Assembly: GCA_049303675.1 (NCBI GenBank)
Contig: JBAQNJ010000001.1
Location: 956,001 to 998,299 of the forward strand
Source: Microgenomates group bacterium
GTDB taxonomy: Bacteria; Patescibacteriota; Microgenomatia; UBA12405
Direction: 5' to 3'
Length of the DNA: 42,299 bases
Shown here: piece by piece, positions 11,115 through 37,381 of the stretch
How positions within the stretch are numbered: the first letter of the stretch is position 1
Layout of the letters: each line of letters opens with the position of its first letter
Program-made: the position numbers and the translations under genes
Notes under the pieces: model-generated
What the model was told of the DNA's origin: nothing
Seen by the model: only the letters and a program-made list of their open reading frames with translations
The model's database searches: none

Positions 11115-11393
11115 CTATGGCCGTAATGAAACAAAATCAGCAGTATCAATTATGCTCACTACTGCCTCTGCCCCCCGCAAACTACCTAGTGCAATCGTGT
11201 TATAAGTTACCGAAGAACTATCCACACCCTCCACCACTACATCACCATCTACCATTCCTACATATTGACTAGTTTTGCCCCCTTTATCCAAAAAACCTTT
11301 TAAGATGGCCAAATTATCAGGTATGTATTCTTCTTGTGTCGTCACAAACGTATTATAACAACAATTTTCAGTAGTTGGTACACTACCTAGCAT
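11115..11393 (-). CDS. Hypothetical protein (weak call)
   Basis: A 92-aa ORF that overlaps the HNH gene end by 11 nt. No motif recognised. Confidence 0.3.
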   Translation of the reverse strand: MLGSVPTTENCCYNTFVTTQEEYIPDNLAILKGFLDKGGKTSQYVGMVDGDVVVEGVDSSSVTYNTIALGSLRGAEAVVSIIDTADFVSLRP

Positions 11394-11799
11394 TTCTATT
11401 TTTCCTACCTTTACCCTTATTTGAATTTTTATATGTCGTAGTCAAACTGTGACAATTAGGGCATAGCACTCTCAAATTTTCTAAAGCATTATTCATATGG
11501 TTCCCATCAATATGATCAATTTCCAATGGTACCAAGCCAGTAGATCGATTGATTATCCCCCATCCACATAGGCTACATTTGTTATTATTTTTTTCAATAA
11601 AATATCTTCTAATAAATGGCTTTAATACTCCATTCGTATTCAGTGGATAAACTTTCCCTTCAAGCCACGATGAAATATTTTGTTTTCTCGTATATTCATA
11701 TTGACACTTCAACGAACAGAATATTCCAAAACTTGAGTAGTGGGGGCGAAATAATATTTTACAGTTCTTACAACAATATTCATCGTTTCTTCTTGACAT
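11383..11799 (-). CDS. HNH endonuclease
   Basis: Contains LEIDHIDGNHMNNALENLRVLCPNCH (the H-N-H motif with Cys pairs). It is divergent from the tRNA-Thr locus. Confidence 0.85.
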   Translation of the reverse strand: MSRRNDEYCCKNCKILFRPHYSSFGIFCSLKCQYEYTRKQNISSWLEGKVYPLNTNGVLKPFIRRYFIEKNNNKCSLCGWGIINRSTGLVPLEIDHIDGNHMNNALENLRVLCPNCHSLTTTYKNSNKGKGRKNRNAR

Positions 11800-11857: not shown

Positions 11858-11930
11858 GCCTGAGTAGCTCAGTTGGTAGAGCATCCCTCTTGTAAAGGGA
11901 AGGTCATGAGTCCAAATCTCATCTCAGGCT
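11858..11930 (+). tRNA. tRNA-Thr (anticodon UGU), no encoded CCA, T-loop TCCAAAT
   Basis: Manual cloverleaf: acceptor gcctgag/ctcaggc, D arm gctc-agttggta-gagc, anticodon arm tccct-cttgtaa-aggga, variable aggtc, T arm atgag-tccaaat-ctcat. Confidence 0.8.
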
Positions 11931-11931
11931 C

Positions 11932-12207
11932 ATGTCTGGGTATGTATATATCCTAAAATCATTAAAGAATGATCGATATTATATCGGTAGCACAAACAAC
12001 ATATTTCGAAGATTAACGGAACACAACTCTAGTAAATGTAAATATACTTCCGAATCTGGACCTTGGGAAATTGTATTTAGTCAGGAATTTGAGACTATTA
12101 AATTGGCTAGACACATCGAATATATGTTAAAAAAACTAAAAAGCAAAAAAGTGGTTGAAATGATAATTGTAAAAAAGAAACTATTTGTTAAGAAAAAGGA
12201 AATGTAA
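11932..12207 (+). CDS. Small GIY-YIG nuclease family protein (YhbQ-like)
   Basis: MSGYVYILKSLKNDRYYIGSTNNIFRRLTEHN carries the GIY-YIG signature. The ATG starts 1 nt after the tRNA discriminator base. Confidence 0.85.
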   Translation: MSGYVYILKSLKNDRYYIGSTNNIFRRLTEHNSSKCKYTSESGPWEIVFSQEFETIKLARHIEYMLKKLKSKKVVEMIIVKKKLFVKKKEM

Positions 12208-12208
12208 A

Positions 12209-12270
12209 TTGGTAGAGCAGTCCGAAAGCTTTCGGACAGGTCGTCAGTCCGAGTCTGACTTCAGGCTCCA
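12209..12270 (+). pseudogene. Truncated tRNA copy (D-loop to CCA) with the anticodon arm replaced by an 18-nt palindrome
   Basis: Reads ttggtagagca + gtccgaaagctttcggac + aggtc + T arm gtcag-tccgagt-ctgac + ttcaggc-t-cca. It begins 1 nt after the GIY-YIG stop. Its 3' acceptor strand can pair with the 5' acceptor strand at 11858-11864. Confidence 0.6.
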
Positions 12271-17872: not shown

Positions 17873-17890
17873 GGATTTGATTCTTTACTG

Positions 17891-17963
17891 AGCCCAGAAA
17901 GGAACTTGAATCCTTGACCTTCCCCTTACCAAGGGGATGCTCTACCAACTGAGCTATCTGGGC
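17891..17963 (-). tRNA. tRNA-Thr (anticodon GGU)
   Basis: Manual cloverleaf: gcccaga/tctgggc, D arm gctc-agttggta-gagc, anticodon arm tcccc-ttggtaa-gggga, aggtc, T arm aagga-ttcaagt-tcctt. Confidence 0.9.
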
Positions 17964-17994
17964 GAATTGTTAATATTGGTACTGAATTATACTT

Positions 17995-18043
17995 GACCTG
18001 TCCGAAAGCTTTCGGACTGCTCTACCAACTGAGCTATCTGGGC
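17995..18043 (-). pseudogene. Truncated tRNA copy (5' acceptor to variable loop) with the palindromic anticodon arm
   Basis: The first 26 nt are identical to tRNA-Thr(GGU) (gcccagatagctcagttggtagagca). These are followed by gtccgaaagctttcggac and aggtc. There is no T arm. Confidence 0.6.
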
Positions 18044-18134: not shown

Positions 18135-18156
18135 TATTTCGTAATTCGTAATTAAT
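18135..18156. repeat. Heptad array, TAATTCG family
   Basis: Reads tatttcg taattcg taattaa, just upstream of tRNA-Ser. Confidence 0.7.
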
Positions 18157-19690
18157 AATTTTTAATTGATTTTGGAGAGGTGCTCCGAATGGTAAGGAAC
18201 TTGTTTTGAAAACAAGCGCCAGCAATGGCATGCAGGTTCGACTCCTGTCCTCTCCGCCAACCAGAAAATGGGGGCGAATTTAGCAAAATTCGCCAGCCAA
18301 TATTGCCCTGAAATCCGAAATTTTTATCTTTTAAAACGAAGTTCGAGCCGATATTTTTTAAGAAACTTCTAAATTCATAAGGATTGTTTTTCTTTATTAA
18401 TATTTTGGCAAGGCTTGCGGATAAAATCATTTCTCTCATTTGTTCGAGCCAATTATTTCCTTTTGATTCAAAATCTTTTAAATCCTGCTCGATACCAGTT
18501 TGTTGATTGATAAATAAATTTTTCTTGGTGAGGTATTGTTGATTATCAATCAAATTATCGAGTCGGAAATTTAGCAGGTCATCAAGTTTTCGGTTAATTT
18601 CTGATTTTTGAGTTACCAGATTTTGAATCAATGGTTGGGATTGGATATTTGCTTGATTGGTTTCTTGGTCTAACTCTACCAACATCTTTTTTACCCAACT
18701 TTTCGGCAAAGAAACTTTTTGAATCTTGGTTTTGATTTGGTCTATCAATTCCTCCTCTCGTAAATATTTTTCGGGACAATTACTTTTCTTTTTAGTACAG
18801 CGATAATAGTTATGTCCTTTTTGGGTTTCGGCGGTTATCAGGCAACCACACCCGCCACATCTCATTAGTCCCGAAAAAATAAACTCGTGTTTTCGTTGCC
18901 GATGTTTTTTGCCTCGGTTATTCATCACCTCTGCCACCAAATCAAAAAGTTTCTTAGAAATAATTGGCTCATGAACTCCTTTATACAATTCACCATTAAA
19001 TCGAATCAGTCCGTAATAAATTGGGTTTTGTAACATAAATTGGACACGGGATTCTGATAAAGTTTTATCTTGATAACTTTTAAGGTTTGACTTAGCGAAA
19101 AATCCGGCGATACCTTTGAGGGTGCAATCGCCAGTCGAGTACATTTCAAATGCCTTTTTGATTAGTTTTGCTTTGGGAATATCAATATCAATTCCTTTGG
19201 TTTTACGATTATTGACATAACCAATCGGAGCAAAAGACGGCCATAAACCATTCCTTAGTTTTTGTCTGATTCCTCGCCGGATATTTTCGCTTAAATTATC
19301 AACATAATATTTACTCTGACCAAAGGCAATATTTAACATAAACTTGCCTTGTGGGGTTGAGTCAAACCAAAAAGTAGGAAACTTTAAATCAAGAATTTTT
19401 CCCGTGTCCAATAAATAAATGATTTTCCCGCCATCAATTGAGTTTCTGGCCAATCTATCAGGGTGCCAAGCCAAAATGCCCTGTGCTTCGCCTTTTTCCA
19501 TTCTCTCAATCATTTGATTAAAAACAATCCTTCCGGGTTTCTTGGCAGTTTTTGCCTCGGTGAACGAGGCAACGATTTCAATTTTTTGAATTGTGGCAAA
19601 TTCTTTTAGCTCAGCAATCTGATCACCAATACTTTTTATTTGTCTTTCTTCACTGTCGGTTGATTTTCTAGCGTATAAAAAGTATTTCAT
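18152..19690 (-). CDS. Large serine recombinase (integrase); the last ~60 codons read through the att arm and antisense tRNA-Ser
   Basis: Has the N-terminal resolvase catalytic motif YARKSTDSEERQ, a recombinase domain, and the zinc ribbon CGGCGCLITAETQKGHNYYRCTKKKSNCPEKY. Confidence 0.9.
   Translation of the reverse strand: MKYFLYARKSTDSEERQIKSIGDQIAELKEFATIQKIEIVASFTEAKTAKKPGRIVFNQMIERMEKGEAQGILAWHPDRLARNSIDGGKIIYLLDTGKILDLKFPTFWFDSTPQGKFMLNIAFGQSKYYVDNLSENIRRGIRQKLRNGLWPSFAPIGYVNNRKTKGIDIDIPKAKLIKKAFEMYSTGDCTLKGIAGFFAKSNLKSYQDKTLSESRVQFMLQNPIYYGLIRFNGELYKGVHEPIISKKLFDLVAEVMNNRGKKHRQRKHEFIFSGLMRCGGCGCLITAETQKGHNYYRCTKKKSNCPEKYLREEELIDQIKTKIQKVSLPKSWVKKMLVELDQETNQANIQSQPLIQNLVTQKSEINRKLDDLLNFRLDNLIDNQQYLTKKNLFINQQTGIEQDLKDFESKGNNWLEQMREMILSASLAKILIKKNNPYEFRSFLKNIGSNFVLKDKNFGFQGNIGWRILLNSPPFSGWRRGQESNLHAIAGACFQNKFLTIRSTSPKSIKNY
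18174..18259 (+). tRNA. tRNA-Ser (anticodon UGA), long variable arm, encoded CCA
   Basis: Acceptor ggagagg/cctctcc, anticodon arm cttgt-tttgaaa-acaag, variable arm cgccagcaatggcat, T arm gcagg-ttcgact-cctgt, then g-cca. The D stem is imperfect. Confidence 0.85.
18254..18337 (+). repeat. attL-side arm: 84-bp perfect inverted-repeat partner of 19715-19798
   Basis: I compared the reverse complement base by base and found it identical over 84 nt. It contains the internal hairpin ggcgaatt/aattcgcc. Confidence 0.95.
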
Positions 19691-36849: not shown

Positions 36850-37381
36850 GCTAGATTAGATTGTTAATTTTGATAATTAGCTTTCGAATCTATACCTTTA
36901 GTTTATCGCTAAAGGATCTCTCTGCAAGGGTGGGGAAAATAGTTCCCACTGGAGAGTATGGGGTTGGTGGCTCCAGTAGCTTTATTCAACTCTATTCTCC
37001 AGTGTGAACTCCGTTTCCCTGCCTGCCGGCAGGCAGGTCCTTTGGCTATAAGCCAAAATCTATTGCGATTTTTCCAACACCGCGTTGGAAAACAATCAAA
37101 ATAGACGATCTTTAACAACTTGCTTTGCTTCTCCGCCATAGCTCTTTGAGCGAAGGTGGAAGCTTTTCTCTTATTTTGTGTGATATCAGTGACGACGGAT
37201 GAACATATGGTTTTCTCCAAATCGATCCATTTAGTGACAGCATATTGACATCAATTTATTTGATGTCAGCACGCTGTCACTAGAATGAAGTACTAGTGTT
37301 TGTAATGAGGGAACAGACCTCAACTATTCTTTTAACCGCCCTATGGGCATAAACTAACACGTCCTGATCAGCGTGTTTTTT
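36850..37381 (+). ncRNA. Candidate long structured noncoding RNA or leader (~530 nt), class unknown
   Basis: No convincing ORF is present. It carries a chain of hairpins (36895-36915, 36932-36947, 36947-36977 or 36947-37004, 37018-37037, 37041-37057, 37070-37090, 37232-37282). It is bounded by a promoter-like element and a hairpin plus T-run at 37356-37381. Confidence 0.3.
37356..37381 (+). terminator. Intrinsic terminator/attenuator hairpin upstream of ORF 37415
   Basis: Stem aacacgt (37356-37362) pairs with gcgtgtt (37371-37377). The loop is 8 nt, and TTTTTT follows. Confidence 0.55.

Follow-up and report, generated by a model that had tools for sequence, protein, structure and literature searches.

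A partial tRNA-Thr(GGU) gene with a palindrome for its anticodon arm, a probable relic of a GIY-YIG/tRNA cassette in a Microgenomates genome

How does an intact tRNA gene come to be preceded by a copy of its own first 26 nucleotides (nt), in which a perfect palindrome stands where the anticodon arm should be? This question is raised by a 49-nt element upstream of tRNA-Thr(GGU), at positions 17,995 to 18,043 of a 42,299-nt stretch of DNA from a Microgenomates group bacterium (assembly GCA_049303675.1, contig JBAQNJ010000001.1, positions 956,001 to 998,299; the whole stretch is called the window here). We propose, at a probability of roughly two in three, that the element represents the 5′ half of the tRNA-Thr(GGU) gene resident at this site, left by a small selfish cassette that invaded the gene and whose nuclease gene has since been lost. 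The reading draws on related genomes in which the site is empty or fully occupied, on a family of GIY-YIG genes that lie between tRNA genes and their partial copies, and on the conservation of the hairpin itself.

The fragment and its locus in related genomes

The 49-nt element lies 31 nt upstream of tRNA-Thr(GGU) (Table 1), and its tRNA part (gcccagatagctcagttggtagagca) matches the start of that gene at 26 of 26 positions when the tRNAs are compared with the genome by BLAST. This identity and the layout of the locus agree with the earlier note, which had described a 49-nt partial tRNA copy with a palindrome for its anticodon arm, and whose description was right on every point open to checking. 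The 34-mer formed by TTGGTAGAGCA, the palindrome and AGGTC has an identical copy at 12209-12242; the palindrome is predicted to fold as RNA into 7 bp closed by an AGCU loop (-8.5 kcal/mol), in agreement with the proposed 7-bp stem and AGCT tetraloop; and tRNA-Ser(UGA), at 18174, is 130 nt away as had been claimed. Within the window the palindrome occurs twice at no more than two mismatches, against 0.01 occurrences expected from 100 shuffles. The fragment is called as a tRNA by neither ARAGORN nor Rfam and lacks a cloverleaf with acceptor stem and T arm, the sequence beyond AGGTC being unrelated to tRNA. The spacer that follows looks like a promoter or leader module. Its TATAAT..TTAACAATYY layout precedes 4 of the 47 tRNAs of the genome, this tRNA-Thr(GGU) included; a simple scan found no full sigma-70 site in the spacer, and a sigma-70 and terminator scan around the fragment was uninformative.

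We compared the tRNA-Ser(UGA)/tRNA-Thr(GGU) locus with that of five related genomes (G000 denotes the genome of the window, G001 to G003 belong to the same genus, and L-numbers denote retrieved loci). The fragment is absent from three of the five, G001, G002 and G003, in which gtaaaatttttgttacaata.. directly adjoins tRNA-Thr(GGU). In G000 the same sequence adjoins the fragment instead, and G000 therefore carries an 80-nt insertion, consisting of the palindrome, AGGTC, the spacer and a duplicate of positions 1-26. Judged by the same flanks, it is the fragment that adjoins the conserved upstream region and occupies the ancestral position. At this locus G004 has a 12-nt 5′ piece and two hairpins, and in G008 the site holds a pair of 5′ pieces whose D loop contains a double hairpin, an intact tRNA, a GIY-YIG open reading frame (ORF) that begins one base past the tRNA, and a 3′ piece that carries the identical 18-mer. 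The site is polymorphic, being empty in G001 to G003, holding 5′ pieces only in G000 and G004, and holding a full cassette in G008.

The full cassettes also reveal which tRNA parts are resident. In G008 the outer GCCCAGG... pairs with the outer ...CCTGGGC, and the inner tRNA has a different acceptor stem, GCCCGGA/TCCGGGC, from which it follows that the cassette lies inside a split resident gene. The arrangement is the same in G022, with outer pieces GGGCATG/CATGCCC and an inner tRNA of GGGTGTG/CACACCC. An inner tRNA that differs from the outer pieces, as expected of a linked foreign allele brought in by co-conversion, is found in G008, in G022 and at a sister locus within the window.

A family of GIY-YIG/tRNA cassettes

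The sister locus is that of tRNA-Thr(UGU), where the intact tRNA is followed by an ORF of 91 amino acids (aa) and then by a 3′ fragment holding the second copy of the 34-mer (Table 1). The ORF scores 59.3 bits against PF01541 (cut-off 22.6), and the best solved relatives of its product are the UPF0213 proteins 1zg2 and 1ywl (96-107 aa), followed by SLX1. In the alignment the catalytic Y, Y.G, R, H and E are retained in at least 90% of 29 homologues, so that a catalytic domain with its Tyr, Tyr-x-Gly, Arg, His/Tyr and Glu is present at the sister locus, the fragment locus being without a nuclease gene. The 33-nt stretch of the 3′ fragment from AGGTC to CCA is identical to the intact tRNA-Thr(UGU) of G003. 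The window's own intact tRNA-Thr(UGU), with the acceptor strands GCCTGAG ... CTCAGGC and a T arm that also differs, represents another allele, which resembles the one in G001. The 33/33 match, with the other allele intact, indicates that the displaced piece is the genus-typical gene end and that the working tRNA arrived with the nuclease gene. An empty site for this locus was not found, the matches lying at contig ends and the G003 tRNA being inverted.

Two further features of the sister locus were observed. A 138-aa ORF for an HNH endonuclease (PF01844, E 2e-5) occupies window positions 11383-11799 on the minus strand and ends 58 nt upstream of tRNA-Thr(UGU); it would be a second nuclease gene at this tRNA. 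Position 55 of the T loop is almost always a pseudouridine, which makes a C there unusual, and tRNA-Thr(UGU) of the genus has C rather than U at this position (TCCAAAT, TCCGAGT; window 11858-11931 and 12243-12259; L120).

G000 holds ten matches to PF01541, comprising eight small ORFs, one open frame of 430 aa and one broken remnant. Five of the eight small ORFs sit between a tRNA and its partial copy, in the order tRNA, ORF, 3′ piece at Thr-UGU, Gly-GCC and Pro-GGG, and in the order 5′ piece, ORF, tRNA at Leu-CAA and Tyr; the other three do not adjoin a tRNA, and the broken remnant is about 120 nt away from tRNA-Ser(GCU), on its downstream side. Homologues (E<=1e-8) were found in 39 of 61 genomes, and 29 homologue loci outside G000 were fetched and inspected. 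A tRNA on the same strand lies no more than 25 nt from the ORF in 25 of these 29 loci, at 57-118 nt in three, and is missing in one. The ORF either starts 0-3 nt past the tRNA or ends inside or just before it. In 24 of the 29 the far side of the ORF has a partial tRNA copy, defined by a shared block of 9 nt or more; of the remaining five, two share only an 8-nt block, and the other three either showed no copy or were compared with the wrong tRNA. Cassettes that are complete, with hairpins on both sides, were seen at L084, L087, L089, L093 and L040, the two flanking copies being identical in L084 and L089 and one base apart in L087 and L093. In several genomes units of 5′ piece, hairpin and promoter are tandemly repeated, and in L038, a Victivallaceae record, tandem 5′ pieces of tRNA-Ala carry the exact 18-mer and a GIY-YIG ORF follows the tRNA. 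Such cassettes seem to be common in these ultra-small bacteria. We found no description in the literature, supplementary files aside, of GIY-YIG genes that split bacterial tRNA genes.

One locus of G004 (L091:449-524 in the orientation used by our scripts, the reverse strand of the stored locus) holds a copy of tRNA-Ile that is nearly full-length and has the hairpin for an anticodon arm. ARAGORN reports it as 'tRNA-Stop(tta)', and copies of this kind can be mistaken for suppressor tRNAs.

In the relatives a complete cassette begins with resident positions 1-26, a hairpin, a piece of the variable loop, a promoter or leader and a complete tRNA gene, and continues with a GIY-YIG gene of about 90 aa abutting that tRNA, a D-arm piece, a hairpin and resident positions 44-76. 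The resident anticodon arm is missing, and a near-perfect palindrome takes its place on both sides of the cassette. Going beyond the architecture, empty sites, resident and foreign alleles and conserved hairpin that are observed, we infer nuclease activity, break repair and an order of events as follows. The nuclease would break the resident tRNA gene, and during repair the cassette would be copied from a donor through homology in conserved stretches of the D arm and the variable/T arm. The cell would thereafter rely on the tRNA of the cassette, and the cassette would later be trimmed by recombination between the repeated tRNA parts. Deletion between the 3′ repeats would remove the nuclease gene and leave the 5′ fragment, spacer and tRNA, as at 17890-18043; deletion between the 5′ repeats would leave the tRNA, GIY-YIG gene and 3′ fragment, as at 11858-12270. 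The repeats of the complete cassette thus predict two trimmed forms, and both occur in the window.

Table 1. Features at the two tRNA-Thr loci and related features elsewhere in the genome. Positions are those of the window unless a genome label is given.
Feature	Position	Strand	Remarks
Intact tRNA-Thr(GGU)	17890..17963	-	ARAGORN; Rfam tRNA, 71 bits
Spacer, 31 nt	17964..17994	-	TATAAT hexamer; TTAACAATTC at its end, directly before the intact tRNA
AGGTC, copy of variable loop (positions 44-48)	17995..17999	-	from sequence
Perfect 18-nt palindrome, GTCCGAAAGCTTTCGGAC	18000..18017	.	exactly in place of the 17-nt anticodon arm
5′ fragment, tRNA-Thr(GGU) positions 1-26 (5′ acceptor strand and D arm)	18018..18043	-	gcccagatagctcagttggtagagca
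Intact tRNA-Thr(UGU)	11858..11931	+	ARAGORN, Rfam; allele differs from the downstream 3′ fragment
Stand-alone GIY-YIG ORF, 91 aa	11932..12207	+	ATG immediately 3′ of the tRNA; Pfam PF01541
3′ fragment	12209..12270	+	begins one base past the ORF stop codon
3′ fragment, D-arm piece	12209-12219	+	
3′ fragment, palindrome	12220-12237	+	
3′ fragment, AGGTC	12238-12242	+	
3′ fragment, T arm	12243-12259	+	
3′ fragment, 3′ acceptor strand TTCAGGC	12260-12266	+	followed by T, then CCA
Large serine recombinase, 512 aa (Resolvase, Recombinase, Zn ribbon)	18152-19690	-	ORF overlaps tRNA-Ser(UGA)
Hammerhead-like motif 1	G000:C1:606995-607055 = L001:1466-1526	-	34.7 bits, E 4e-6 for the genome; stem I is the 18-mer
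Hammerhead-like motif 2	G000:C1:210137-210205	+	27.3 bits; stem I is a CCGA..UCGG hairpin

The hairpin within and outside tRNA pieces

Replaced anticodon arms were extracted by their D-stem and variable-loop anchors only, which gave 21 arms from 14 loci, 19 of them with 7-9 consecutive Watson-Crick pairs and 0-3 central bases left over. They share the core TCCGR..YCGGA, and the inner pairs of the variants change compensatorily (GTCCGATG../..CATCGGAC, GTCCGGTG../..CACCGGAC and CTCCGACG../..CGTCGGAG). The adjoining D-arm piece decays. The 18-mer of the window is one variant of this hairpin, which travels with the cassettes, and the conserved core together with the compensatory changes argues for a function. 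Other cassette subfamilies have other hairpins at other positions: the D arm of pieces from Asn and Leu tRNAs carries CCTGCCTGCCGGCAGGCAGG, and Glu pieces have double hairpins at position 11/12. A looser pattern of hairpin followed by variable loop was met in 30 of 301 genomes sampled from the phylum (a count that includes G000 and one unpublished genome, G214), against four for the reversed-pattern control. As a separate observation, the 20-nt palindrome CCTGCCTGCCGGCAGGCAGG has eight copies in the genome, one of them at window positions 37018-37037 and at least four beside tRNA genes (Pro, Cys, Val, His); in relatives it sits in the D arm of partial tRNA-Asn copies beside GIY-YIG genes.

Our guess is that the hairpin is most likely a stable RNA stem-loop that would cap the tRNA-distal end of the nuclease transcript and also delete the anticodon arm of the dead copy. 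C-UUCG-G is a stable RNA tetraloop motif, and a hint in this direction comes from the terminator-like uses of the hairpin and from CTTCGG variants elsewhere in the phylum, which as RNA would read C-UUCG-G. Against this, pairing that runs almost to the hairpin centre would fit a DNA dyad equally well. A bolder idea, to which we give little credence, is that the hairpin-bearing tRNA pieces are working parts of a minimal targeting system, in which the tRNA-derived flanks, acting as RNA or single-stranded DNA, would aim the GIY-YIG domain of about 90 aa at tRNA genes and the hairpin with its conserved core would be the protein's handle, placed opposite the arm to be cut out. It would explain the exact swap of arm for hairpin, the conserved core beside decaying flanks and how a domain that lacks specificity of its own reaches many different tRNAs.

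Two candidate explanations tied to particular sites were tried and rejected. Hpy188I is a GIY-YIG restriction enzyme with the site TCNGA (PMC3045582), which the TCCGA/TCGGA of the hairpin would provide; the genome does not avoid TCNGA (observed/expected 0.84-0.97), and one variant has GCCGA. The notion that a resident T loop with TCCGA and a cassette tRNA without it form a sensitive and resistant pair held in two cases and failed in L093. Separately, CCNGG pentamers are strongly depleted throughout G000 (observed/expected 0.27-0.43), which may point to a restriction system with that site.

The association of the palindrome with tRNA in this lineage is real, though the palindrome is not specific to tRNA. 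That it always replaces anticodon arms, a possibility raised in the earlier note, does not hold, for it also forms stem I of a hammerhead-like motif, follows a 12-nt piece of tRNA-Val and, by its 14-nt core, tops terminator-like hairpins. G000 has six copies of the 18-mer at no more than one mismatch. Pieces of Thr-UGU, Thr-GGU and Val-UAC tRNAs account for three, a tRNA-like relic at 851 kb for a fourth and the hammerhead-like motif for a fifth; the sixth is unassigned. Its 14-nt core, CCGAAAGCTTTCGG, is the commonest 14-nt palindrome of the genome, with nine copies. The genome has 42 hairpins of the form CCGA-loop-TCGG with 6 bp or more, where five shuffles gave 0-12, and some are terminator-like, with A and T runs on their flanks. 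An Rfam search of the window region and 13 loci returned tRNAs and one sub-threshold hammerhead only, the other contexts of the palindrome matching no family. Two type III hammerhead-like motifs (Table 1) have a complete CUGAUGA...GAAA core and a GUA cleavage triplet, both scoring below Rfam's 48.5 bits; stem II of the first is another hairpin that is present in tRNA-Tyr pieces too.

Public sequences from several phyla contain the exact 18-mer in 57 stretches. In most of these it stands at the tip of another hairpin, and only 5 of the 57 have it in a tRNA-piece context. No GIY-YIG ORF lies near it in 55 of the 57, which indicates that the copies in Bacteroidota belong to something else. In ten Bacteroidota loci (L016, L019, L020, L026, L029, L036, L039, L047, L061 and L069) the 18-mer lies inside an element ..TTGAGCGAA-18mer-GAAACGAA.. 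that has many copies per genome, no GIY-YIG gene nearby and no Rfam match. A scan of viral contigs for the 18-mer gave no matches. Two near-identical contigs of G019 (L005 and L009) share a structured-looking leader, GGCAACC..GGTGCC, without an Rfam match; in one of them GTCCGAAAACTTTCGGAC and CCCGAAAGCTTTCGGG stand where two native stem-loops were, and the difference looks like hairpin swapping between strains.

Origin of the fragment, related systems and meaning

Several points weigh against a lost cassette as the source of the fragment. The fragment is identical to the intact tRNA-Thr(GGU), so that no allele difference marks it as resident, and its locus holds no nuclease gene or remnant; with both of these signs missing, loss of a nuclease gene here would be read from G008 only. 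The TATAAT..TTAACAATYY layout also precedes three other tRNAs, and the layout of the spacer alone is no proof of foreign origin. The hairpin is not specific to cassettes either, as it serves as stem I of the hammerhead-like motif and its core stands atop terminator-like hairpins. At the sister locus, the tRNA-Thr(UGU) of G003 lies beside the same hydrolase gene in inverted orientation, by which orthology of the locus is not established. As for the protein, site specificity in I-TevI and Seg proteins is conferred by a separate DNA-binding domain, and the 91-aa protein is a catalytic domain only, without such a second domain; its cleavage activity is presumed. Finally, any target confined to the tRNA would also be present in the intact tRNA of a cassette, and the reading offers no account of how the host would escape self-cleavage. 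The competing explanations are ranked below in the order in which they survive the evidence.

The first is a local tandem duplication of the 5′ region of the tRNA, followed by insertion of an independently mobile hairpin akin to repetitive extragenic palindromes or miniature inverted-repeat transposable elements, with no nuclease cassette ever present at this site. The dispersal of the palindrome and its core over terminator-like and hammerhead-like contexts, its many public copies at the tips of other hairpins and the identity of fragment and intact tRNA over 26 nt would all fit such a history. However, the spacer is no copy of the leader upstream of the fragment, as a simple tandem duplication would make it; positions 27-43 are replaced exactly and are followed by AGGTC, just as in the GIY-YIG-linked fragments of other tRNAs and other genomes; and the orthologous locus of G008 has a full cassette with the same 18-mer. 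We regard this explanation as unlikely.

Alternatively, the fragment could be a functional RNA. It might serve the tRNA downstream as a leader or processing signal, or act together with the nuclease as a tRNA-like decoy or guide. A promoter would be expected in the ancestral upstream region, and the fragment, which lies downstream of it, may therefore be transcribed. The tandem 5′ units of several genomes and the maintenance of TCCGR..YCGGA by compensatory changes across divergent cassettes, while neighbouring sequence decays, would also fit a role as RNA. Yet the fragment is missing from G001 to G003 at this locus, has neither a T arm nor a 3′ acceptor strand and yields no tRNA call, and the 5′ pieces at the locus vary widely in length and content between genomes, with 12 to 26 nt of tRNA sequence ahead of the first hairpin and with hairpins that differ. 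This possibility is weaker than the duplication just described, and the deliberately inactivated decoy that the earlier note had entertained is without support given the missing T arm and 3′ acceptor strand. The other part of its interpretation, a recombination or homing scar, is supported by the insertion relative to empty sites and by the family of GIY-YIG/tRNA cassettes.

That the fragment is the duplicated attachment (att) site of the element encoding the large serine recombinase beside tRNA-Ser(UGA), or of some other integrase, is very improbable. The recombinase gene is only 130 nt away and overlaps the tRNA, but G002 DNA matches from tRNA-Ser into the recombinase gene region (77% identity over query positions 619-1003, a match at the DNA level only) with the fragment absent, and the copy, a 5′ part, comes from another tRNA and encloses a mere 80 nt rather than an element encoding a recombinase. 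The nearby tRNA-Ser integration site, to which the earlier note had drawn attention, is on this comparison unrelated to the fragment. An assembly duplication can be dismissed as hardly credible, since the genome is a single 998-kb contig, the two copies have different flanks, and the recurrence of the architecture in many independent assemblies argues against it.

If the fragment is the relic of a GIY-YIG/tRNA cassette, the closest analogue would be the mobile ORF elements (mORFs) of fungal mitochondria, and the second closest phage SegB in tRNA clusters. In the passages of PMC3630166 that treat mORFs, which occur in Allomyces atp6 and in Glomus atp6, atp9, cox2 and nad3, an endonuclease ORF lies flush with the host gene, that of atp9 being GIY-YIG; a foreign gene end is brought in, and the native end, pushed downstream, matches a close relative's copy of the gene (PMC3630166). 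The cassettes likewise have an ORF flush with the host gene, a duplicated gene end and a displaced native copy, and the displaced 3′ piece of the window matches the G003 tRNA at 33 of 33 positions while the working tRNA is the other allele. They differ in that their hosts are bacterial tRNA genes rather than mitochondrial protein genes, that pieces are left on both sides, that the nuclease of about 90 aa consists of the catalytic domain only, and that stereotyped palindromes stand in for tRNA arms.

SegB is a phage protein with additional domains. As far as the accounts of phages T4 and T6 go, it is a free-standing GIY-YIG homing endonuclease encoded in a tRNA gene cluster that cuts within tRNA-containing DNA and favours inheritance of the linked tRNA region, and the unit of tRNA and segB has been tandemly amplified by homologous recombination (PMC2330249, PMC13096335). 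A GIY-YIG gene beside tRNA genes and tandem units, here of 5′ pieces, are common to both, whereas the cassettes reside in cellular chromosomes, encode a minimal UPF0213-like protein, split the resident tRNA and replace arms with hairpins. In apparently the same bacterial group, the candidate phyla radiation (CPR), GIY-YIG ORFs are reported from non-intron insertions in rRNA genes, most of the rRNA insertions in the survey lying at the tops or bases of stem-loops (PMC11270868). Both cases concern GIY-YIG ORFs in genes for structured RNAs, but that study deals with rRNA only, its main text does not contain the word 'tRNA', and no partial gene duplication or hairpin substitution is described in its passages on these insertions (PMC11270868). 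That the group is the same is suggested by public records of Candidatus Shapirobacteria, which have the 18-mer in tRNA-fragment context.

Two looser parallels may be drawn. A partial tRNA copy beside an intact tRNA gene recalls the integrative elements whose attachment sites are tRNA genes. In those it is the 3′ part of the tRNA that becomes duplicated, and an integrase is required; here, in contrast, the 80 nt are bounded by a 5′ part, without involvement of an integrase and with the anticodon arm replaced. In fungal mitochondria, double-hairpin elements and GC clusters are short hairpins, rich in GC, that occur with mobile endonuclease insertions and in dispensable parts of RNA genes, and the double hairpins TCAGCCnnnGGCTGA and TCGGCCnnnGGCCGA in the D loops of our tRNA pieces are similar to them. 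The organisms and the sequences are different, however, and mobility of our hairpins would be conjectural.

The fragment itself is a relic of little consequence; what would matter is the family behind it. We know of no function assigned to stand-alone UPF0213/Slx1-like GIY-YIG proteins, which are widespread in bacteria, and a passage in one review describes them as the minimal form of the domain. If our reading is correct, the cassettes would give these proteins a role, and the question would arise of how a bare catalytic domain finds its targets. Furthermore, it would mean that selfish elements bring about the horizontal replacement of tRNA genes in ultra-small bacteria, and it would account for the unusual tRNA fragments that such genomes contain and for their false 'suppressor tRNA' calls.

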